A DNA stretch of 60,674 bases, filler included, from Diploschistes diacapsis (lineage: Eukaryota), in assembly GCA_023645945.1 (NCBI GenBank). It is 7 parts of 7 records of this genome, joined end to end, with 100 filler letters (N's around TTAATTAATTAA, not from the genome) between each part and the next. Parts side by side here need not be neighbours in the genome. Positions count along the whole stretch, not along the records: positions 1 to 27,968 come from JALAIB010000156.1; 6 more parts are not named here. One strand, given 5' to 3'. How positions within the stretch are numbered: position 1 is the first letter of the stretch; every line of letters starts with the position of its first letter. Positions 1-57,409 of the stretch are shown here, one piece after another. The position numbers and the translations under genes are program-made. Under the pieces are notes generated by a model. That model made no database searches. It worked only from the letters and a program-made list of their open reading frames with translations, and was not told where the DNA came from.

Positions 1-2174
1 GGGTGGGGGAGATGGGTGATGTTTAGGGGAGGTGTCATGTTGGAAGAAGGAGGAGGAGAGGATTGTGGTTGAGGGTCGCCGCTGATTTGAGCTCGGGGAG
101 CAGGATTGCCATTTTCGTTTGCGACGGGCGCTGGGCCGACGCTCTGAGGGGAGAAGAGGCGCTCCCAGTCACAGGCCCAGCCTCGTCCTATCTCGCCTTT
201 TCGCCCGTTTCCCATGTCGACGCTCTCGAATTCAATCCGTCGCCCCTTTGGTTTGCGCTCCCATTTCCTCTTACGCTTCTCGCGCTCCTGCATCTCCCAC
301 TGCCACCCGGCTTTTGTGCCGGGAAAGTCCCCCGGAAACCACGGCTTATTGTTCTCGAAGCAGATCTGTCGCTGCTCGTTGAGGCCGCCGAAGCGCGGAT
401 TGCCGCCACCCGACAGTGGGTATCGCATGACCGAGTACCAAACGGGAAGAACACATTTCCAGGAGAGCAGCAGCGTCCAGGAGCCCTGGGCGCAGCCCTT
501 CTTGTCGTGGTTGTTGGCTAGGAGGAGGACGGGGATTCGAGGATCAGTGGCTAAAGGCACGGGGTGTTTGCCGGGTGGAGCTTCGCCTTTGCGCCTGTTG
601 ATGGACCTTTGACTGGGGAGTCTGCGTGAGGCAGAGAGGCGGGCTTCACGATCAAAGATTGGGTAGATGCCGCACGTCTGCTTCCCTGGCCACTCGGACG
701 TCAACTCGAGAGTTGCATCGGTGAGCGTAAGCTCGGGTTCTTCGAGTTTTCTATGTGGTGCACCCAGGCGAGGGTCCGCGACCGAAAGGCTTAGCATGGC
801 GCCGGAGGGAAGAGCGAAACTGTCTGTTATTGGCGCGATCTTGGACCAGATTTGTGCAGCGGGATTATCTACGTCCATTTCACCTTCGCTCGACAGTGCG
901 CTTGGGCGTAGAATGCCAACAAGAGCCTCGAGCGATGCAGGGCCGGTAATGTCAATACTGCCCATCTCAAACCTCAGGTCGTCAAGCACGACCTGCGGCT
1001 TCTGCTCCTTCTTTATTCTCAGTAGCTCTTCCCAAAGCTGCAAGAAGGCTGCTGGCTGAACACGGATCAAAACGCTCCGCTTGCTCTCATCTTCAACCTG
1101 TGGACCCCAGATGATCATCACTTTCGCAATCCAGCCGTGCTCCACTTCTGCTTCCCTGATCCACCCGTAGAAACTCCTCGCGCCGGCCCTCCACCGCATT
1201 CCTTTCTTTCCGGTCAGCCACTGTTCCTCAATGCCGAGGACTCGGAAGGTCTCCAGTAAAGCCGCTTCGTCCCCTTCAAGCCCAATGGTACTCGTATAGC
1301 TCACGTCCCAGGCGATACAGCCTCTGAGCGTGCTCGCTCGATGCGCGGTCCGATAATCCTTCTGCGTCGGCTTCAGCGGGATGGAGAATCGCCACAAAGG
1401 CTCTTTAGGTGGCGTCATATGCGCTCGCTTCGTGTGGAAGAGGTGTGTGGGCAGCCAAGACTTGTTCATCTGGCGCTTCTTGTGCTTCCCAATGCTCGGC
1501 TTCGGGACTGCAAGTTTGTTCGCATGTCCGACAACCTCTTGTCGCTGATCGCTATCTTCATCTCCTTTACCCTTGCTCTTGGCCTTTTCTCGAGCCTGCC
1601 GTGCCTCGTACTCGGCTTTCGCCTCCTCTCTTCGGAACTCCCTCTCTTTCTGTCTTTCTATGCGGGTAGCTACGCTGGGAATCGTCTTGGCGTTCTGCGC
1701 GCGAAGGCGCTGCTTGGAGGACTTTTCCCGGCGTCGAGCAGTCACAGTGGGTGTGTTGTCCTCCTTCATCTACTTTCAACCTCGTCAACCATTACCATTC
1801 GGAGCGCGCCGAGAAATCTGCCTTACCTCCTTTGCAGCTCGAGCCCTCAGTCTGCGGGGTGCTCGCTTTACATTGTGGCTGGCCGTGCGGCGCCGCAGCT
1901 CGCGTGGTACCTGCTGGAATGCTCGGGTCGCGGCGCTCTGCTTCGAAGCCGCCATGCTGTTCTCCAGGGCTCGGATCTCGAATTCACGAGCTTTGACAAA
2001 AGACGCAACGTTCAACTCTCCCGTCATGTTGTTGATGGCAGGATCGGAAGTCTGCGCGAGGATTTTGCGCGCATCTATCAACTTGGTAAACTTGGGACCG
2101 CGTCCTGTCGCAGCCGCTGCCGATGAGGCAGTCCGCTTTTTAGGATTGGATATCGAGGGCGGTTTCGAAGCCAT
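1..2174 (-). CDS. POP1: RNase P/MRP protein subunit Pop1 (3' end runs off the window start)
   Basis: ATG at 2174. Exon 1 contains FVKAREFEIRALENSM...RAFQQVPRELRRRTASHNVKR, the Pop1 N-terminal motif. A GT-AG intron at ~1826-1770 joins to MKEDNTPTVTARRR; later sequence includes LPTHLFHTKRAHM and WRFSIP. Confidence 0.93.
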
Positions 2175-11450: not shown

Positions 11451-12398
11451 TGCACTCTCGTATGCAACGACTGACAACGTAAGATAGAGAAAGGTGCAGT
11501 GTGAAGCTTGAGAAGCCATGTTCAGTGTTAGGTGTGCAGGCGAGAGCAAAAGAAGAGCAGGGATACGGATTGCAGCAATGTAGCCTGCCGCCGCACACGA
11601 ACGAAGCCTTGCTGGGCCTCAGAGTGCGTTGCGCAGCAGTAGAATGCAAGTGGGACTGCTTAAAATACATTAATCGTAATGTTACGATTTAATACATGTT
11701 TGTTTACTATCTTTACTAGCGTGTGTTTTGCTCAAAGAATAGTCGCCGCTTATAGTAGCTATATATTATTGTATTTGCTTGAAAGAATTCACAGCTTGCG
11801 CTTAATGGCTCTTATAATTCAGCTGACATACTGCCATCAGACCCACCATCACGTTGCTCCATGCAGAGACTTCCATCAGGCCCGGACAGCTACAGTAGAA
11901 AGCGTCTTGCGCCTTCTGTTGGTCGTAACGTGAGGCTAAAGACTTCAACTCATCTAAATGGCATTGCAGCTGCCGTTCCACGATACGCCGCCCCCTAACA
12001 AGACAAAGATTTGTAACAAACAATCTTCGTGTCTGAGGCCTTAGATCTGAATTCCAGTCAGGCTTTCCTGTGGGTCAGGTAGCCATATGGGGTAGGATAG
12101 CAGTTCAACCTGTTCGCTTTGTAGAGCGATTCGTTTGAGATCAGCGGAGACTCTGCATAGCATAGCCTCTCCGTGCCATAATGGTGGCAATAACAATGAG
12201 GGAGCCTGAAAGCGGATGCTTTGTAGATAAGGTCATGTATGCTTTTAGTTATTATATATGGTACTATCTACTCTTAGCTCATCTCATTGGAAAATAATCA
12301 ACAAACCAAACTCTGATTCCACAATGTTCGAGTTCTTGGTAGAACAAACTATAATCGAGAAGTTTGTTTCGAGGATCAGTCACTTGATCTCCAGCATT

Positions 12399-17793: not shown

Positions 17794-20250
17794 AGAGGTA
17801 GGGAGGAGAGGGGAAGAAGGGAGAAAATAGGAAGAAGTTGGAAGGTAATAGAAACTCGGTATAATGCGTCGTCACTAAGCATACAAATATCAACAAACTC
17901 TCTCTCTCCTATACCCAAAGATACCAAAGTAACTTCTGATGGCCATAAAGGTACAAACTTCTACACCCTTACTTATAGTGGAGCGAGGGAAAGCCCTAAG
18001 CGTGTCACGTGCTGACGCGGGCACAGTTGAGGCACGCTGGAAGTAAGTGGTCTAGTCATCTAGACATTCAGCCTACTACGCGTATGGTAGGATATGTTGT
18101 CGGCATTGAACGCGCAGAAAAAACACACACTGGTAAACATTTCACCAAAAGCACTCGATTTCTCCACCATCTATCAGCCCGTTTATCGGATTAAAGCCAT
18201 TTCGGACTCTGCAATATCTTAGTATATAACCCTTCTCGAACTTGTTTCACGAGCCTGCTCAGGTTTTGCTGATTTCGAGGAGCTTCCGTTAGCCGACCCT
18301 CGGCTATACTTTGATATTATTCTCTCGCTTCTTCCCTAGTCGACCTGTAAGCGTATTGCAAATGCGCCCCCGTCATTCTCCCATAGGAGGTGCTCTGTTC
18401 CTTGGCGCAACCAGGGATTATGGACACTCGAGATTCATCTTAAGGGTGGTGCTCTGCCATGTCTGTGGTAGTGCTTGGGAAATGCGATGTCAATGTAAAT
18501 CTATTCCTATGTGGACGCTCGGTTCTTCCTGAAAGGGGGATAATTGCTATTTAGAGCTTTCAGTTCACTCGGGTCTTCAACGGTGGCCGCAATTGAAGTA
18601 ATGGACCTTGCTGGAAGAGTCGTGTATGGTTAGTAAAGCCATGACTATACTGTCAGCAGAGTTATGTGAACTCTGCGCCCGCTCATTTTCTTATCGTTCG
18701 ACAGGTCGATGTAGTTGGCGGCCAGGATCTGTTTCATGTCTATCAACGTACCTCTGCAGGAGCCCTCTCGTTTTTCGAGACCTCAGCTTCGAGTTATGAA
18801 GCCTATTCGCAGGCGATACAGCATCTGCGCTTCTGGCAAAAGTGCAAGTTATAGAACTTCGATTTCTCGGGTGGCTGAACCAACGACAATCTTCTTCAGA
18901 GTTTGGGGATTTTCTTCCAGTTTTGCTAACAAAATACTGGACATCCCACCATTGGTGAGCTAGAACATGTTCCAATTAAATAAGTTCCTTTGCCCCTGCC
19001 CTGCCGCCGTCCTTCGGCCAGCTTTTTCTCGAAATCTGGAAGCGATTACCGTCGGAAAATACTCGCATCTCCAAAGTACTGAATCTGGTCTCAATTGAAG
19101 ATAATTCGTAGCCAACTAAAGAGTAGAAAAATAGTAGTCGTCATTCCTCAGAGACGTGCCTCTTTGCCGCTCCCTTGCATAGTATACGCCCATCTCGTAA
19201 GGAGGTTAGTAGTAAGAGATGGACTGTGAGATGGCATCGTTGAAAAGTAATTTGGGCCCAGAGCTTTGCTTACGAGCTGCTGATGAAAGTCGGACTCAAA
19301 TGCTAGGACATCACGAGGTCCGGAGTGTGAACACGCAAATACAGGTTTGCTTCAGGTTGGCTTATGCAAGTAGTGATGTGCCTTGGATTTTTTAAATAGA
19401 ATTTTGACATTGGACTCCAGCTCAATACCTAGAAAAGGTATAACATGATGGTATGAGATTTTCGCCTACAAGCAGACCTTAGAAGAGAAAATAACCAACA
19501 GACTCGTTATGAGGCTTCCGGTAAGCTTACGACCCTTGCTTGTAACCACCGGCTTCTGCCGTGAACGGAAATCCCAAGTTCCTGCCAGAGGCATGTAAAG
19601 GTCACGGTAAGAATCAGACGAGATCAAAGGTAGTACAGATGCCCCTCTAGTAATCGAACGGTGGTTCGTTACTGGTACAACTCCTTTGGGAGTGAAATTA
19701 ATTCTTGGTTTTCCTTCTGACTATTATCTTGTAGAGTGCGGTTCGTTTCTCAGTGCTTGGATCTTTCAGAGAGCACAATGGATTCCTGATGCGCTTACGA
19801 TCGATATTGAGCCTACTTCAGCTCTTCTCTGTTTTTGTGGATGTCGATACCTAACGAATGCACGGTACATAGTCAAAGCGATATGGTCCAGTACAAGGGC
19901 CCTGTGGTCAGCCAACTCGTCTCGTATGATACCATGATCTTTTATGAATGGTGTAAAGACGACTGCCAAGGTCTTGCGACAAAGGCAGGTCAAATCACCC
20001 AAAATATTGCCACCAGTCACATCTTACGTCTTCCCAACCAGGAAAGCAGCACAAGTACAACATTAAGACTCTTCTCAACCAGAACAAGATCTTCGGGAGG
20101 TGAACTGAATGCCCCTGTGTGAAGGGTGTTTTCTTCCCTCCCTGATTTTGATGTATGAAGAATGATAGAGCTTTAAGTAAACATTAGCATTAGCTTGCCC
20201 AATATCAGAGCTATATAAGACCGTATTTCAAAGTTCAGCTCATTAAACCA

Positions 20251-20385
20251 GCTTCTTTAGCTCAGTTGGTAGAGCGCGGCGTAAGTTGGGAAAGTGGTCA
20301 ATATGTTGAAACTTACTAACAATAATATATAGACTAGTACATCATCGAGATGCCGAGGTCATGAGTTCAACTCTCATAGGAAGCA
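20251..20385 (+). tRNA. tRNA-Thr(AGT) with a 52-nt spliceosomal-type intron (20281-20332) and a 10-nt canonical tRNA intron (20340-20349)
   Basis: Acceptor stem GCTTCTT/AGGAAGC, discriminator A; D-arm GCTC-AGTTGGTA-GAGC; T-arm ATGAG-TTCAACT-CTCAT. Removing both introns gives anticodon stem CGGCA/TGCCG, loop CT-AGT-AA and a 73-nt mature tRNA. Confidence 0.92.
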
Positions 20386-20395
20386 TTTTTTTTTT
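20386..20395 (+). terminator. RNA polymerase III oligo-T terminator of the tRNA-Thr gene
   Basis: T10 run immediately after the discriminator base. Confidence 0.85.
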
Positions 20396-20807
20396 AATTA
20401 GTCAGTCAATACACACATTCTATCTGCCTCTAACTATTAGCTCGCTGCAATGTGTTTTGCCTTCATCCCCACAAAAAGGGTAAGCTGCACTAATATTCCA
20501 ACATCGTGGAAGTTTGCATTTGTCCATTTTTGGGAGCACTTAGTAAAGCGGCAAGAGAAACTTAATCTACCTGTCTACGCGACGCATTCTTCTTTTACGC
20601 GTATTACTGTGAGCTTCTTGTCACACGGTTTGGCCTGTCGCCCTCGAAGTCAACGACGCTTTCAAATCCTAGCGTTGATTATGTATGATGAAAAGCTGCT
20701 TGGTTGACATGATAGCCCATTACAACTTCAATAATTTTAAACAGCTCAGGGAATTTGTGCCTCGGAGTCCAGACTAAGCCGTTTCATTGCTCTATAAGTT
20801 TATCAGC

Positions 20808-27968: not shown

Positions 27969-28068
27969 NNNNNNNNNNNNNNNNNNNNNNNNNNNNNNNN
28001 NNNNNNNNNNNNTTAATTAATTAANNNNNNNNNNNNNNNNNNNNNNNNNNNNNNNNNNNNNNNNNNNN
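27969..28068. other. Artificial contig linker N44-TTAATTAATTAA-N44
   Basis: Identical 100-bp structure occurs six times and has stops in all six frames. Confidence 0.98.
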
Positions 28069-31000
28069 GTTTTTAATTATATTATAATTAAATTTGCGGT
28101 AGGTTCTGTAAGGTTTATTATAGGTGCTAACGAGCTCGTAAACGGCGTAAATATCGTTATACCCGGTCCGAATTCCTAAGTTTTAGACGAACCTGTTTCG
28201 AAAGCTAAAGCAACTGTTAGATCTAGATCGAACTTTAAAGATCCCGAATTCGTAATCAAATTGTATCCTACAGATCCGATTAGAAACCCTTTCCAGAGCT
28301 TCTTCGCCCAGGCTTCTCTTTTCGGCGGCAAAGCTGCAAGATATCCGGTCTTGCTCCAGCCAAAGTGGGTGTGGTAGGCTCCATCTGTTTCGTAATCTCG
28401 CAGAAAGCCTAAATACAAGTTCTTAAACACAATGATATCTATATCGCTATCATTTTGCACTAAAATGACCCCAATTTCGTGATCGACGATGTAGGCGAAG
28501 GTTATGAAATTCTACTATTAGATCGGTTCAAAAAGGAAGTCTCTATCGTCAGGTAACTTAAACCTCTTTCGTTTCGGTCTATAAATAATAACATTCGTAA
28601 TCGTTTTAATAGGTATTCTGGTTCTATTTTTACTATAAATCTTCGTAAAAACCCTATTGCTATCTATTATAACACAGATCTCTATCTTTACTTTCTTATA
28701 AGCCTCGATAATAGCAAATCCATTCGAAAAATCTATAATAAAATCTTTAGGTTTCAAGATGTCGATCCCGATAAGCGTATTCGCTCGCAAGTCGTCGACG
28801 ACGTAGAATTCGCGTTGAATAATAATTAAATTTTTTTTCGTTAAGATCGATAAAAATAGCTCTATAACAATGTATTCGCTTACGTTATGTTTAATTTTTC
28901 CTACCTTTGTCATTGTTATCGGCGAGGGTATTTCGTGAACCTTAATTTTACCGTCCCCGAAAACCTGTAGGAACTTACGGTCTATTAAGGATATTATACA
29001 TCCAGAATCAACGCAAACCTTATATTCCGGACTAATTAACGAGAACTTAATAACACAAATAACATATCTAAAGCTTTTAAATCTAAAACCTAATATTTAT
29101 AGTTTTATGGCCGTAAATCTGATCAACTTCGGTACTAAGATCTATTCAACGTCTATTATAGAATCCCGAATCGCACCCTTTGTAGCAACTCTTAACCATG
29201 CTTCCGTAATCGTCAAAATCGGTGGAGATAATTCTTTCAGCTTCGTATCTAGATCCGGATCCCTTAGGCCAACTTTTGATAATATGGCCCCGGATTTCGA
29301 AACAACTTGATAATTTTTGCTTTTTAGATGCTTATGCAGCTTATTGTTCGAGGCAAAATATGCATCGTAATTCAAATAAATAACTTCTTTAATCGACAAG
29401 TTCGATATAATTATCCATAAAACATTCGTATTGCTTACTTTATTTAAATCTCGGTTCTTCTTTAACGTTTAAGGGTCGTTTAAGGCGGTCAATTCTTCTC
29501 CCTACTACTGCCAGTATACATCTTAATAGAAGTCGTTTTCAAAAACGTCGTAGTCCTCGTAGTCGTCGTAAGTACGATTTTCGTCTTCGGTATCGTATTC
29601 TATAGAATTACTAATATTATATATAATTACCGGCTCTCTCTTCACTTCTCCCTATTAGTTCTTACGCCCAGGCATAGGCCCTAAAACGTTTGCAGTAGTA
29701 ATTTATAATTACTATCTTTCGCCGAATAATTGTCTTATGGATACCTAAAGGTTTTACTATTATTCGGAGTGAAGCTGTCGCTAATTAACTTATCTATAAT
29801 TATTAAAACCACGTCTATAACCACCCGACGAAGGAAATTAAGGATTATAAGAAGATTGAAAATTATATAGAGATTAAGATTAACGATAGAAAGATTAGAA
29901 AGGAAAATTGGTTTAAAAACTCTACTAAGAACCTGATTAAAACCTGGGTAGAACATTTGAAGAGAAATAGGGTCTCCTCGAGGGAAGACCTTGCCTGTAG
30001 TTCTGAATCCTAGGCGAAAATGGTAGATAATTTGGAAATTCGCTCATGTACTGACCTCTACCTCGCTGTGGAGCCTGACGTCGAAGCTGTTGCTGATTCT
30101 GGCTGTCATCTCGCTTGCGATCGTCTCGCTTATAAAGCTCTGTCCAAAGCGATTTATGAGCTCTAACATTGTCGACAAATGCTTCCCACGTGGTGTTCTG
30201 GTCTGGGGGTGCTAGGTTTTGTCGTAGCCTCGCATCGATCTGCTCATACGCCATAAAAACCTGACTTGCATCCGCAGGCACGATTATAGACTACTGAGCC
30301 TTAACCCTAAAGTCACCAAACCAACGCATGACATCCTTGCCATAACGTATGTCCGCCGCAGAAAGAAACATTTCTTTCAACTATTTATAGGCCAAGCTCG
30401 GGAACATCTTGAAACGTGTTTTTAATATAATGCACCATATCCCTATATTATTTTACAGGTTTAGACGAGATAATTCGTTAAGCTCATTAATATACCATTA
30501 ATTCGCTTCTTTCAACAAGTAGTAGTACAGATTTTTCGTTATATTAGTACCATCTCCAACCTATTCTTCGACTCGGACCCTAATAATGAAAACGAAGACA
30601 TCGTGAAATCGATTATGAAACTCTTTTACCTCTATAACTGGCTATATGTCGTCGGGATCGAAATAGCCGATGAACTTAAAATTAAACCTATTCCTTGAAC
30701 CGAGAACAGCTTCACTAGGTTCTCTAACTGGTCTTACAGGTCCTAATGGATCTTGAGGACCTAAAGTCGGGTTCTGTTACAATTCAGCCATCAAACTCTT
30801 CAGTTAATTCAACTAAGTAGGTATAAACTCCATATTCTTAAAAAAAGGTGCTAAAAGGAGTTATAGCGGTCGTAATTTTAAAAACGGTTGGATCTTATTT
30901 CTTTTTAATAGGGAAAACCCTGATCCACGATTCGTAAACCGATTGAAACCCGGCTAAGATTCTGATATTAACTTAGAAGCTCGTACCTCTTAAAGAGGAA

Positions 31001-32218
31001 ACGGGCTAACTGATAAAAATAAACTTTCAGACGATCTTAAAACAGATTGCTTAGCTTTAGCTTGTATTAAAGATGATTATTTAGATCATACCGAAAACGG
31101 TTTAGCAACTGAGGATGGTTTAATAACCGAAACTGTTTACTCGGTTCGTGTTAATGGTTATTATTCAGATCTTAATTTCAAAATAATCAAAGGAAATGGA
31201 TCGACTTGTTTAATGTCTGGTAGCCCGGTCGGAGAATTATTTACTTAAATATGAGGTAGATTTGCTTGTATTTTCTGCAAATTCTCCTCTAAAACCTGTA
31301 AGCTTTCTTCTATCTTCACCTACTTCTGTTTATCCTTCTTCCTAGCCGACTTCGGCAAAAATGATGAAGGTGATAAATCTTCAAAGCTCTTAGAGCGTTG
31401 GAACAACGATTGAACTACAGTTCTGAACTCCTTAATAGCCTGTCGGAGCTTTGGCAGCTTAATAGCCCATTTAGATGGATATGGGTTTAGTTATTAACTG
31501 GAAAATGGGTCGGTAGCGAGAAAGTCTAAGCTGGTGTGTCTCGAACGGAATGATGCTGCTAATAGTTCTGTATGCTGGTGATAGGCCCTATTAAGGTAAG
31601 AAATCACCGCTAATTTTTTCTATATATTCTTCACCTAATCTATCAGGTGTCTGACCGGTCCGAGTTCTGTTTTTTAATGATAGCCAGCTCTATCGAAGTA
31701 ATCGAGCTGATAAGCTTTAAAGATGTCGTACTGGTTAATTATCGGAGCTGTTATATGTCCGAGCTTAAATCTAGCTTCAAAAGCGATATAGAAGGACAAA
31801 ATCTGCTATATAAAAGATATAGCTCAAAACGAAGCAAACAGGTGTTCAAACAGTAACTAATTTACGATCTTAAAGGTAAAGCAAAAGGATGTTTCAATGG
31901 TAGCCAAAAGCTCTGGTTATGGCAAAAAAACCACGAAAAAAAGGCTTGGTGGGAGGCTGGTAAGTGCTAGTAGGTCAAATCTCACTGCAAAAGCATCAAA
32001 AGCTTCTGCTCAAAAAGACAACTACAAGCAATCTGATGCTCAACCCGGGACAAATGGATCGACAACTAATCGTTACTACCAATGTAACAAGGACAAGGCT
32101 GGTAAAATGGATTGTATTGATAGAAGAGGATGGGCCCCTCCAAAAGACTATGGCCTCTTGGCCCAAGCAACGCCAAGCCTATCTAATCCTATCAGGACCA
32201 CATGCCGGTCCCGTTACA
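28069..32218 (-). mobile_element. RIP-degraded Ty3/Gypsy-like LTR retrotransposon, 5' part (LTR, PBS, gag, zinc finger, aspartic protease), truncated at the contig end
   Basis: Minus strand: gag-like segment AYEQIDARLRQNLAPPDQNTTWEAF (29937-30281), decayed C2H2 YLNYDAYFASNNKLHKHL, protease KVCVDSGC...LIDRKF (~29010) and VVDDLRANTLIGIDIL. TpA-rich with many stops. RT and integrase are not seen, so the superfamily is inferred. Confidence 0.78.
32083..32218 (-). repeat. Putative 5' LTR (136 bp) with adjacent primer-binding site at 32071-32081
   Basis: Bounded by TGTAAC...GTTACA inverted termini. On the minus strand it is followed after 1 nt by TGGTAGTAACG, a TGG-starting PBS-like sequence. Confidence 0.65.
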
Positions 32219-33435
32219 CAGCATGATTTTTCAATTCTTTTTAAAGTAAACGCATGATTCCTGTCTAAAAGGTCTTTTTTAAAATAATCTTGATTTCCGT
32301 CCCTTTAACAATCTTAAGAGCCCATTCTCTTAATAGATCAGTGGTTGCTTTTTCTAAGATCCTTAACTTTCGAACGATAGAAACGCGGGAACGATTTATT
32401 AAAATCCTTCCCGATATATTTCTACTAGATGGAACTATTTATACTTCTCGGCCTACCTTTTTAGGTTCCTCGGCATCTTTTATGATAGTTTTTTATATAT
32501 CCGGCTCTCGTTTTTCCGTATTATCAGATATAACAGGCTGTAGAATGATAGCAGTAAACCTTATATACCTTCCTTTTCTAACGTTCTTGTTCTATAAAAG
32601 TCGTTGTTCTTCGATCGTTTTTTCCTTTAGGACCCGGCGACGCTCGTTAAATTTCGGATTTAAAAAGTTTCTTCGTTTAGATGCATCTTTCTGCTGTTTA
32701 ATAGGGCGTTTTTTAATTATCGTATTAATCTTATATATATTCTAATAATTGACCTCGTATGATTAAATAGAAAAACGTTCCATTATCTTTTCGTCATTCT
32801 TTTCTTCCTCGAAATCTTTAGACCTAAATCCCGTATTAATTACATTATAGGCTAACATTTGGTATAAAAACCTAGTCTAGATCTGTTATGGAAGACGAGG
32901 GTTCGAAAGAGCTTTATTTTATAAATCTTTTTTTAGTTATTAACCTAGGATATAAACTTTTTAATCATCGTGCCCTGCTTATAGAAATTGGTCTATTATA
33001 TTTAAGGGTGGTTATTAAGACCGACGAAGATCTTGTTCTCTCATATGTAGATGTTTCTATTCTAGAAAAGCGGCTGTAACAATGGACAGCGTACCCTATA
33101 ATAACCATCTTTTTAGCAGAAGTAACAGGTTGTAGGGCCTCGATTAAACATAACATCCTAGGATTGTTTATTCTGATTAGGTTAAGTTGGAAAAGGACGA
33201 GTTACTTAAAACTGATAAAGCCTAATAGGTACTAAATAAGGCGCGTTAAGAACAAAAGGCCGATACGGACCGTTAATAACGGGCGTATAATTAATTTACG
33301 CGTTTAGAACCATATTTCCAAAATCTCTTATCATTCCTTCCCTTTTTTTTTTAAATATGTACTTATTTTTCTTTATAAACTTATTTATAAAATTTTTAAA
33401 AAAGTTCTTTAAATTACTTATAAGCTCTATATTAT
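32219..33435. repeat. AT-rich, RIP-like decayed sequence flanking the LTR; unidentified repeat relic
   Basis: TpA-rich with stop-riddled frames; no recognisable domain. Confidence 0.5.
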
Positions 33436-33535
33436 NNNNNNNNNNNNNNNNNNNNNNNNNNNNNNNNNNNNNNNNNNNNTTAATTAATTAANNNNNNNNN
33501 NNNNNNNNNNNNNNNNNNNNNNNNNNNNNNNNNNN
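33436..33535. other. Artificial contig linker
   Basis: N44-TTAATTAATTAA-N44. Confidence 0.98.
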
Positions 33536-33925
33536 GGTGGGGAGTGGGGGAGGTGGGGAGAAGGAGGTGAAGAAGGGAGAGAAGGCGGTGGAAGAAGAGG
33601 AGGAGGAGGAGAAGAAAGGCCGAGAAGGAGCCGGCATAAAAGGATAAATGAGACTTTATTTCGCCGATGCTGGCAAGGGTTTGTCGGCTTATCTGGCGCT
33701 CGAAAGGCGCAAGCCTCGAGGTGGAAAAGGTAGTGAAATAAGCGCTAGAAAGCAGAAGCCTCCCAAGAAGCAGTCAGAAGCTCCAAAGGAAGCATATGAG
33801 AATGTACAGTATTCAACAGAGGAAGACTCAACGAGCACCCCGTGATAAACGCGAGCAAGCACATACAAGTCATGAGTAGGACTCTTAGAAATTTTCATTT
33901 TCACTTTTATTTCAATTCTCTCCGC

Positions 33926-34770
33926 TCAAAAGAACCGCCACCATATAAATACAAGAATAATAAAACCTACCCCCGCAAACGGCCCATACTGCTTCAGCAG
34001 CAGCTCCCAATTAATCCTCACCGCCGCACGCTTGTACTTCCTACTGTCCTCCCTCAACCTCATGCTCATATCACCCATCCTCTCCAGACTATCCCCTCTG
34101 TACAGCAGATCCTCGATATTCTTCGTCATGACCTTGGTCACGTCACGGAGCTCGTCGTTGAGCTTATCTAGATTTGCGGAGGCACGCGAGTCCTGATACG
34201 TTTTCTTCGTGCGCTGGATAAAAGTGTCAAACTCCATGAAGGCGTAAGGCCGGCAGAGCGGCGACAGGAGCTGGGGGAGGGGGTAGGTGGTTGTGAATTC
34301 CGTAGCGATATCGGAGAGGTAGGTGAAGGCGAGCTTGCGCGGGTATGAGGCGTCGCAGATGGCGAGGAAGCAGATTGTTTCTTGGACTAAGTAGCTGATG
34401 GCGTTTTAGCGGGGGCCCCGTTGGGTCAAGTATGCGATATAGTGAGACGAGTAAGGGTGGGATGGAGAGGGGAAGGGGGATCATACTGTATTGTGTGTTT
34501 GCCGCATTCTATCGTTGCTTGGGGTTCAGAGTTCTTGTTGAGCCTCTTGATGATCATCTTGGCTTTGGACTTGGGGTCTGAGAGCTCCGCATCTGACTAG
34601 GCTTGTCAGAGAAGGTGGATTGGTAGATCGAGGGGGTTGAGGGGGCGTACAGATTCATCGTCGACTGAGGCTGAGAGCATGAGTCCTGGGGAAGATTAGC
34701 TATGCGCAGGAAGAGCCATGGACTAGAATGTACCATCTGTCGTCCGAGCAATGAGGGTTGATTTAACCAT
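33926..34770 (-). CDS. SEC22: R-SNARE Sec22 (longin + SNARE + TM), multi-exon
   Basis: Spliced start MVKSTLIARTTDGLMLSASVDDE, then YPRKLAFTYL, RPYAFMEFDTFIQ and VMTKNIEDLLYRGDSLE, with a C-terminal TM. Confidence 0.95.
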
Positions 34771-55772: not shown

Positions 55773-57409
55773 CTATCCATCACACCTACCCACCCATCTG
55801 GGCCAAGCCACAACGTCCCTCACGCTCTCTTCACCACTCAAGTAACAGAGTAGCCGGTCGAATCCCAGCCCAAAACCACCATGCGGCACACTCCCCCACC
55901 GCCGCAGATCAAGGTACCAGTCCAGGTTGCCCCCTTTGTCTCCCGATAGTCCGTGCTTCCGCATCGAGGACACAAGATCCTCGAGCCTGTGCTCTCGTAG
56001 AGAACCGCCGGCGACTTCGGCAACATCCGGAAGGAGGAGGTCGAAGTTCGCGACTGTTTTGCCATCCTTATGAACATTTCCTTCCATATCATCCGTGGAT
56101 GCCTGCGCGCCCCTTGAGGTTGTGTCTGAAGGAAGCATATAGAAGGGCTTCAAGTGTCTTGGGTAATCCGTCACAAAGACAGGCCCACCCAGGCCCACAG
56201 CCGAGGCGAGATGCCTCTCATGCTCGAGCTGCAGGCTCGTGCCCCAGGCCACGCGGTGTTGAAACACAACCCTCCCTTCGGTGACGGCAACCTGGAGCAG
56301 TTCAATGGCGCGGGTGTAGGTGATGCGAGGCCAGAGTGCGGCTTTCAGACCGGCCAAGCGCGAGCGGAGGGCTCGTGCTTGGCTAACGTCGTCTTCTCTT
56401 CCGGCCCCGTGTGCTATGGAGGTCTGCAACAGCTCGTTGCCAACGCGAGAATTGCCAACTTTTGTCGCTACGTATCGTATGAGACCCTCGACCAAGTCCA
56501 TTACTTCATCAAGTTGCTCGGTGCGTAGCTCCGCCTCGAGCATGTAGAACTCGCTCAGATGACGGGGTGTGTCGCTGCGCTCCGCGCGGAAGGTCGGTGA
56601 AAGGGTCCATACGGCTCGATGCTCGTGGACATAGGCCTCCAGGTGTAACTGGGAGGAAACGGTAAGGTATTTGGACGTGCGGAAGTACTCTTCATTCTCA
56701 CCCTCCCTTGCAACTTTGTCGTGTGGGCGGATGGTGAAGACCTCCCCAGCGCCTTCGCAGTCGGAGGACGTGATGAGTGGTGGATGTACGCGGACGTAAG
56801 AGCGGGTGTTCAAAAACTCGGCAATGTACCACTCGCAGTCAGAACGGAGACGGGCGAGGAGGGCGTTGAAGGGGGTACGGAGGCGGAGGTGTGGGACAGT
56901 GCGTAGGTATTCAGACGTGTGATATTTCTTCTGGATGGGGTACGTCTCCGGATTGGCACTACCTACAATCTTGACCTGCTCTGCGTGCAGCTCGTGGGAT
57001 TGATTCAGCCCCGGAGGGCACGCGCGCAAGTGCCCGATTATGCTGACCGCGGTTCCGGTGCCTATACTAATTGATAGATCATAAGCCGAGAGCGTATTCA
57101 GAGGTCAAGAGATAGGACATACCCTTTAGCTTCGGAAGGTTTGATGATCACCTGAAGCTCCTCCGTTGTTGAACCATCACCAATCTTTGCGAATGAAATC
57201 CGCTTTTGGTTTCGAATGGTTCGAACATGGCCGCTGATCTCAGTAAGGTGCCGCTCATCCTGGTGTATATTGGCCTTTGCCGAGTCGAGAATGGCAGCTA
57301 TGGTTTGTTTTGCATTGTGATCTTTGGAAAACTTCCTCAACGAGATTTCTTGCGCACATTTGATGTTGAGTTGCGACAGGGGTACTCTACTTATAGAGCG
57401 CCATAGCAT
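55773..57409 (-). CDS. SLM5: Mitochondrial asparaginyl-tRNA synthetase
   Basis: Arg-rich presequence MLWRSISR, OB-fold FAKIGDGS, SSDCEGAGEVF, YLTVSSQLHLE, PTFRAERSDTPRHLSEFYMLE and motif 3 PHGGFGLGFDRL; one intron. Confidence 0.92.

Follow-up and report, generated by a model that had tools for sequence, protein, structure and literature searches.

The DNA analyzed here (hereafter the window) is a stretch of 60,674 bases deposited as Diploschistes diacapsis (GCA_023645945.1), in which a tRNA-Thr(AGT) gene on the + strand (20251-20385) is interrupted twice. The first interruption is a 52-nucleotide (nt) insert at 20281-20332, inside the anticodon stem, and the evidence of its sequence supports a spliceosomal-type intron that has every hallmark of such introns in fungi and none of the bulge-helix-bulge (BHB) introns cut by the tRNA splicing endonuclease. 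The second is a 10-nt intron at the ordinary tRNA intron site. Our findings suggest that this is probably a working tRNA-Thr(AGU) gene, the precursor of which would pass through the spliceosome first, with the tRNA endonuclease and a ligase acting afterwards. If it is spliced in this way, it would be the first known case of a tRNA that depends on the spliceosome, and it would extend the occurrence of spliceosomal introns in structural RNA genes outside the RNA polymerase II (Pol II) repertoire to an unexpected host, in which such an intron is joined with a canonical tRNA intron. Textbooks and current reviews assign tRNA introns to a protein endonuclease and spliceosomal introns to Pol II transcripts, apart from rare exceptions in U6 and other small nuclear RNAs (snRNAs) and in some fungal ribosomal RNAs (rRNAs) (PMC12530127, PMC13149111, PMC5855946). 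A preliminary description of the locus knew of no described spliceosomal intron in a tRNA, and we likewise found no paper on a spliceosomal intron in a tRNA gene in the open-access literature, the coverage of which leaves out most subscription journals.

Anatomy of the split tRNA gene

The gene is recognized by the Rfam tRNA model (RF00005), which aligns to 20251-20385 with 48.4 bits (gathering score 29) from model position 1 to 71 and accommodates 71 nt where the model has 9, so that the anticodon arm is 62 nt longer than the model expects. In this alignment exon 1 (20251-20280) corresponds to tRNA positions 1-30 and provides the 5' strand of the acceptor, the D arm and anticodon-stem positions 27-30, with the A-box region TAGCTCAGTTGG at 20258-20269. 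The 52-nt insert follows between tRNA positions 30 and 31, after which the short exon 2 (20333-20339) supplies position 31 and anticodon-loop positions 32-37, the anticodon AGT being at 20336-20338. The canonical tRNA intron CATCATCGAG, 10 nt in length (20340-20349), lies at position 37/38, and exon 3 (20350-20385), again delimited by the Rfam alignment, carries position 38, the 3' strand of the anticodon stem, the variable loop, the T arm with the B-box region, the 3' strand of the acceptor and the discriminator A. Directly after the discriminator base stands a run of ten T that resembles an RNA polymerase III (Pol III) terminator (20386-20395) and is one of only six runs of eight or more T on the + strand of the window. 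A TATA-like element, TATATAAG, can be read 39 to 32 nt upstream of tRNA position 1 (20212-20219) and may act as an upstream Pol III promoter element. All of these features share the + strand. With a covariance-model match, A- and B-box regions and a T-run terminator, the locus has in its sequence what marks a nuclear Pol III tRNA gene, and this supports the view that it is a real, otherwise intact tRNA-Thr(AGT) gene. When the sequence was re-read alongside the RF00005 alignment, the coordinates and motifs of the preliminary description proved correct throughout, and its statement that the arms, the A and B boxes and the terminator are intact was borne out. An Rfam search of the whole window at E values up to 5 gave no second tRNA or split RNA gene, the five other rows lying far below their gathering scores.

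The 52-nt insert opens with the 5' splice-site consensus GTAAGT (20281-20286), contains the branch-site consensus TACTAAC (20314-20320) with the putative branch A at 20319, and closes with the 3' splice site TAG (20330-20332), so that it ends 13 nt past the branch A; each of these signals was read from the + strand. The sequence therefore has the GTRNGT-type 5' site, the CTRAY close to the acceptor and the YAG end of a U2-type (GT-AG) intron. A search of the window on its two strands with the strict pattern GTAAGT..TACTAAC..YAG gave a single match, the insert itself. Under relaxed criteria (a GTRNGY start, CTRAY 6-30 nt before the end, and a YAG end), 3 of the 119,432 52-mers in the window qualify, the insert counted, and 2,000,000 shuffles of the insert produced 11 sequences that satisfied the relaxed pattern and 0 that satisfied the strict one. 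Two registers for the insert boundaries are permitted by the tRNA fold, since G20281 may also pair with T39, and just one of the two has GT-AG ends; the chance figure was therefore doubled, and with this doubling included the three signals would be expected by chance about once in 100,000.

Candidate introns in the neighboring protein genes provide a second standard of comparison. A scan that joins open reading frames (ORFs) returned, ab initio, 31 rows at 16 donor sites, the clearest of which are 47-63 nt in length and combine GTAAGT, GTATGT or GTGAGT with CTGAC or CTAAC and a YAG end, examples being one of 51 nt with GTAAGT..CTGAC..TAG at +4156, another of 63 nt at +26928 and a third of 47 nt at -10522. 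The insert matches the size and signal class of these predicted mRNA introns of the organism itself, and its branch site is stronger than theirs, the full TACTAAC being present in 0 of the 31 candidate rows. The preliminary description had also drawn attention to the absence from the insert of any T run longer than 2. The observation is correct but is without statistical weight, as 30% of shuffles are alike in this respect and 76% have no run longer than 3.

Neither end of the insert has the structure recognized by the tRNA splicing endonuclease. With a BHB defined as a 4-base-pair (bp) helix flanked by a 3-nt bulge at each cut site, we examined nine registers, and all four pairs of the central helix could be formed in none of them, the best giving three of four. 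The two introns part company as candidates for canonical endonuclease cleavage: the 52-nt insert occupies the 30/31 site, whereas the 10-nt intron occupies the 37/38 site and its third-last base, G20347, is able to pair with C32, as the preliminary description had proposed, although the minimum free energy (MFE) fold instead pairs C32 with the last intron base.

Removal of the two inserts in silico (20281-20332 and 20340-20349) leaves 73 nt that ARAGORN, run without its intron option, identifies as tRNA-Thr(agt). The MFE fold of this product is a clean cloverleaf (-23.0 kcal/mol) with a 5-bp anticodon stem and a C32-U33-AGU-A37-A38 loop, in agreement with the earlier proposal that a cut exactly at GT and AG restores both the stem and the AGT anticodon. 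When only the 52-nt insert is cut, ARAGORN still requires the 10-nt intron, and this intermediate is predicted to fold into a cloverleaf with an anticodon stem that is lengthened by pairs between loop and intron; such an extension is the usual look of a eukaryotic pre-tRNA. In the native sequence ARAGORN finds no tRNA at its default settings, which include no intron option. With introns allowed it returns a Ser(cga) tRNA with a single 62-nt intron at 33/34, a parse that we rejected because it places A at the universally-U position 33, uses a non-canonical intron site, and sets a serine (class-II) anticodon on a class-I body that has no long variable arm. In the predicted fold of the full precursor the acceptor, D and T arms are kept and the anticodon arm becomes one long irregular hairpin. 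Folded alone, the insert is not unusually stable (z = -1.6, with 15 of 200 shuffles equally stable).

One further feature of the insert concerns the arrangement of its signals. Its first seven bases, GTAAGTT (20281-20287), are the exact reverse complement of AACTTAC (20310-20316), which overlaps the start of the branch site, and on this sequence the 5' splice site and the branch site could mask each other in a 7-bp stem. In a related assembly (X2, below), substitutions at 20311, 20312 and 20314 leave this pairing unconserved.

The locus in other assemblies

We read the organism as a lichen-associated ascomycete, probably the lichen's own fungus. Words sampled from the stretch were shared in full by a lichen metagenome run, its possible source, at 0.34 by a single-organism run and at 0.24 by a rock metagenome. 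Contigs of four runs (X1 to X4) were compared with the locus at 80% likeness, of which X1, X2 and X3 come from three studies. X1 is identical across the locus and may be the source of this DNA. The insert is present in the assemblies of X1, X2 and X3, and its presence in three assemblies from three studies argues that it is no assembly artefact.

The most informative of these is X2, in which a 166-nt contig covers 20235-20393 at a depth of 84, with the flanking contigs at 77 and 78. Relative to the window it has seven substitutions in the first intron (20288, 20299, 20302, 20308, 20311, 20312 and 20314) together with one deletion (20324), and three substitutions in the 10-nt intron (20342-20344), the length of which remains 10 with G20347 kept. 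This amounts to ten listed substitutions in 62 intron bases against none in the 66 exon bases for which differences could be listed (Fisher p = 0.0005). The splice signals, on the conservation of which at orthologous loci the earlier interpretation depended, are preserved here: GTAAGT, ACTAAC and TAG are unchanged, the sole change within TACTAAC is a T to A at 20314, and the branch A lies 12 nt from the end of the insert (13 in the window sequence). The alignment extends to 20393, i.e., the T run is retained. Three of the changes (20302, 20308 and 20324) strike three of the eight pairs of a predicted terminal helix (20301-20308 with 20323-20330) while their partners are unchanged. As this helix is broken without compensation and the signals are untouched, it appears that it is the signals that have been kept rather than the structure.

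X3 provides partial coverage, with a contig that spans 20145-20326 and has 5 substitutions and 3 insertions or deletions in the 106 nt upstream of the gene. There are no listed differences in exon 1, GTAAGT is again unchanged, and the two differences in the insert are both common to X2; one further difference, near a contig end, is unlisted, and with the contig stopping at 20326 the branch site is only partly checked in X3. Considered together, the sequences suggest that the insert predates the divergence of the three assemblies and that the exons have since been held while the intron interiors drifted. The decayed exons and absence of constraint that define a tRNA pseudogene are not found in X2, a result that is not final given how close these relatives are. 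An intron-free form of the locus was not found among the contigs of X1 to X4, where the exons are too short for its absence to be shown.

Several smaller observations arose from the same comparison. X3 lacks one base at 20219, in the TATA-like element. In the 5' flank (20142-20234) X2 has a depth of 0 over 20170-20206, and in X3 this flank is evolving much faster than the gene. Downstream, at 20391-20539, X2 has several short alternative contigs of 52-61 nt with 4-6 differences each and a summed depth of up to ~217, compared with ~77 in the flanks, which looks like a polymorphic or multi-strain bubble. The match in X4 is limited to 34 nt in the 3' part of the gene and comes from another organism, the Thr(AGT) gene of which is intron-free and differs in its anticodon stem; it was set aside as evidence for the insert and supports the isotype only. 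A scan of metagenome contigs from the Joint Genome Institute (JGI) for a D arm, GTAAGT and ACTAAC gave a single match, L001, which was rejected as an ordinary bacterial tRNA matched by chance because GTAAG falls in its anticodon loop and ACTAAC lies downstream of the gene. In prokaryotic genome contigs a search for the Thr-specific 5' half followed by GTRNGT gave 0 matches, as expected for a fungal gene.

Two splicing systems in series and the competing explanations

The explanation that we favor is one in which the two introns are removed by different machineries in a fixed order. In this proposal the nuclear gene would be transcribed by Pol III into a precursor with two introns of different kinds. 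The 52-nt U2-type (GT-AG) intron would leave through the spliceosome as a lariat branched at A20319, and this would take place post-transcriptionally, on the Pol III transcript. The 5-bp anticodon stem can, on the predicted folds, form only once this intron is gone, and the 10-nt intron at 37/38 would then be removed by the tRNA splicing endonuclease and ligase. The interpretation in the preliminary description is in this respect partly supported, in that the spliceosomal-type signals, the intact gene and the ordinary 37/38 intron stand on the sequence and its relatives, whereas the occurrence of splicing, the spliceosome as its agent, the Pol III transcript as its substrate and the order of the steps are inferred, and the origin by reverse splicing that was also raised there is conjectural.

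The spliceosomal step is modeled on two known systems, the U6 snRNA intron of fission yeast and the spliceosomal introns in the rRNA of lichen fungi. Spliceosomal introns are reported in PMC5855946 from U6 (a Pol III transcript), U2, U5, U1 and rRNA, with the determinants of their insertion called unclear and with tRNA not in the list given there. The U6 intron, known from fission yeast and also from other fungi (Tani and Ohshima 1989, 1991, cited in PMC5855946), is likewise a short GT-AG intron with a branch site in a small structured Pol III RNA; post-transcriptional removal by the spliceosome is required there and would be required here, and an origin by reverse splicing has been proposed. 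Reverse splicing is also discussed as a possible route of intron transposition in PMC11146597. The two cases differ in that U6 is placed at the spliceosome's catalytic center, which would explain reverse splicing into it, whereas a tRNA has no such proximity; in addition, the tRNA host has an endonuclease-type intron as well, and splicing has been demonstrated for U6 but is here predicted from sequence.

The introns in the ribosomal DNA (rDNA) of lichen ascomycetes (Bhattacharya et al. 2000, cited in PMC8527467) come from the same ecological, and probably the same taxonomic, group. They resemble the insert in length (57 bp in Cladonia grayi compared with 52 nt here), have mRNA-like signals, and reside in a structural RNA of the translation apparatus that is not a Pol II product. 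The 57-bp intron of Cladonia grayi is reported to have been removed by yeast from Pol I transcripts, and the word tRNA appears nowhere in that paper (PMC8527467). The rDNA introns differ from the present one in lying within Pol I transcripts of several kilobases rather than in a gene with a 73-nt Pol III product. A third point of reference is provided by introns described in PMC4090602 from the tRNA genes of Cyanidioschyzon merolae, nucleomorphs and Crenarchaeota, which likewise include two introns per gene, one canonical and one in the anticodon stem, with 30/31 among the archaeal sites. These introns are, however, BHB-defined and endonuclease-cut and have no GT, branch site or AG, while the present insert lacks a BHB and has perfect splice signals. 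In PMC12530127 three intron types are distinguished as unrelated, the spliceosomal one being assigned to Pol II transcripts, and PMC5647799, PMC6652019, PMC10680797 and PMC11782384 added nothing on spliceosomal introns in tRNA genes.

Several points weigh against this interpretation and must be set beside the evidence for it. The exon bases at the junction (C before and A after the insert) differ from the usual proto-splice site. The sparing of the 15 signal bases by the 8 changes in 52 nt is weak when considered alone (p = 0.05), and X2 and X3 are close relatives, the two common changes of which are non-independent. The X2 contig counts 12 differences in all, including two unlisted ones situated no more than ~15 nt from its ends and possibly in the last ~7 bases of the tRNA (about 20379-20385). 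Furthermore, the well-assembled flanks in X2 have only 9 differences in 342 positions and 6 in 389, next to which zero exon changes are unremarkable; the contrast between exons and introns rests on the introns and on the diverged stretch 20391-20539 because these flanks differ little. Gene conversion from other Thr(AGT) copies could also preserve the identity of the exons.

These points lend most to the main rival, which we consider unlikely but deserving of serious attention, namely that a tRNA-Thr gene was hit by intron-like DNA or RNA (a reverse-spliced intron, repair filler or an introner-like element) and has ceased to produce tRNA, the insert being spliced only in chance Pol II read-through transcripts. 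Thr(AGT) genes are normally multi-copy in fungi, so one copy would be dispensable. The intact exons would then be attributed to the closeness of the relatives, to gene conversion from sister copies, or to a remaining role of the A and B boxes, as a site for TFIIIC or a chromatin boundary, and the lack of exon changes is, as noted, not significant relative to the X2 flanks. In PMC4090602 non-canonical insertions in eukaryotic tRNA genes are treated as probable pseudogenes, except in nucleomorphs and Cyanidioschyzon merolae, and the string "spliceosom" is absent from that review; this customary reading of such insertions as a pseudogene mark also counts against a working gene. The intron and exon bases of one and the same 166-nt contig nevertheless differ in their listed changes to a degree that speaks against a dead gene. 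All 73 nt are intact, which goes beyond the A and B boxes alone, and the terminator T run is kept in X2. Conversion from intron-free copies would tend to delete the insert, yet three assemblies retain it, and random filler would not be expected to have three perfect splice signals at its exact ends. With regard to an introner, no second copy of the insert is present in the 60.7-kb window, where the best other match is 14 nt (11759-11772), and no target duplication is visible by reading at the ends of the insert.

An alternative that we regard as improbable retains a functional tRNA but derives it from a Pol II precursor, for example a longer non-coding or 5'-untranslated-region transcript upstream of a POT1-like gene, which would be spliced co-transcriptionally and then processed by RNase P and RNase Z. 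Spliceosomes normally act on Pol II transcripts (PMC8527467, PMC12530127), and the position of the tRNA gene is suited to such an arrangement: ~410 nt separate it from the first in-frame ATG (20808) of the POT1-like gene, which lies downstream on the same strand, no other coding gene was recognized in the 3 kb upstream, and 0 of 12 ORFs around the gene gave a Pfam match. The make-up of the locus is, however, that of a normal Pol III tRNA gene, with intact A- and B-box regions, the TATA-like element at -39 to -32, and, directly after the discriminator, a T10 run of a kind that is rare on this strand. There is moreover precedent for splicing of transcripts made by Pol III (U6) and by Pol I (rRNA).

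Slightly more improbable still is removal by something other than the spliceosome, either the tRNA splicing endonuclease acting, as it does in Cyanidioschyzon merolae and nucleomorphs, at a non-canonical site or another nuclease-ligase pair, with GT, TACTAAC and AG being incidental. Some eukaryotes do excise non-canonical tRNA introns, two or three per gene, and archaeal introns occur at 30/31 (PMC4090602); the predicted precursor also keeps its acceptor, D and T arms beside a long irregular anticodon hairpin. Against this, neither a BHB nor a relaxed BHB can be drawn, as CGCG-type exon bases stand opposite ATAT-type intron bases, and the 5' cut site sits within a helix in the MFE fold of the precursor. 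The predicted helix of the insert is not kept in X2, and the coincidence of three splice signals would have to be put down to the chance of about 1 in 100,000 given above. The fungal endonuclease, in addition, measures distance from the tRNA body (PMC4090602), a measure that a 52-nt insert in the stem would upset. A self-splicing intron was also considered and rejected, the insert being far too small. Finally, a chance resemblance or an assembly error, for which it can be said that ARAGORN at default settings sees no tRNA and in intron mode gives a Ser(cga) parse, is close to refuted by the recovery of the insert in assemblies of three separate studies, the Rfam score of 48.4 bits, the A33, non-canonical site and missing long variable arm that the serine parse demands, and the chance figures for the window (3 of 119,432 52-mers) and for shuffles (11 of 2,000,000), which speak against coincidence.

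Should splicing in series by the spliceosome and the tRNA endonuclease hold, it would add a third polymerase class to the hosts of spliceosomal introns, and the smallest and most tightly folded host so far, with both splicing systems acting in turn on one 135-nt precursor. The gene would also provide a compact natural substrate for studying intron recognition without Pol II coupling and intron gain, by reverse splicing as opposed to DNA insertion. It would further extend the idea, developed for lichens, that introns in the translation apparatus throttle growth (PMC8527467). A broader proposition, to which we attach only a modest chance, is that in lichen-forming fungi spliceosomal introns have entered Pol III tRNA genes in addition to Pol I rRNA genes, so that the supply of both ribosomes and tRNA is tied to spare spliceosome capacity and translation is braked, with this gene as the first example of such a composite maturation pathway and as proof that tRNAs can be colonized by spliceosomal introns and retain them. 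Such a brake, if true, would be of the same kind as that proposed for rDNA introns in slow growth and desiccation tolerance.

Genomic surroundings

The ORFs in the neighborhood encode fungal-type proteins, with similarities to POT1, POP1, eisosome protein 1, an ASXH domain, NUDIX and a class II aminoacyl-tRNA synthetase. Two of these have tRNA-related functions, a POP1-like subunit of RNase P/MRP at 3-1769 (- strand) and a class II (Asp/Lys/Asn-type) aminoacyl-tRNA synthetase at 55773-57029 (- strand), and their company in the window is taken as coincidental.

The 14-nt match at 11759-11772 (- strand) is an exact copy of the tail of the insert, from the branch A to TAG (blastn-short E = 0.012). 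A GTATGT lies 72 nt upstream of it, the branch consensus is absent, and the match is probably an AT-rich chance occurrence. Elsewhere in the window, 27969-55337 contains twelve N runs of 44 bases, arranged as six pairs ~5.46 kb apart (27969-28012 and 28025-28068 form the first of them), an even spacing that suggests masking rather than assembly gaps. A block of low GC content at 28001-34000 (0.34-0.39 compared with about 0.45-0.58 elsewhere), in which there are several long T runs, is possibly repeat-degraded or transposon-derived.

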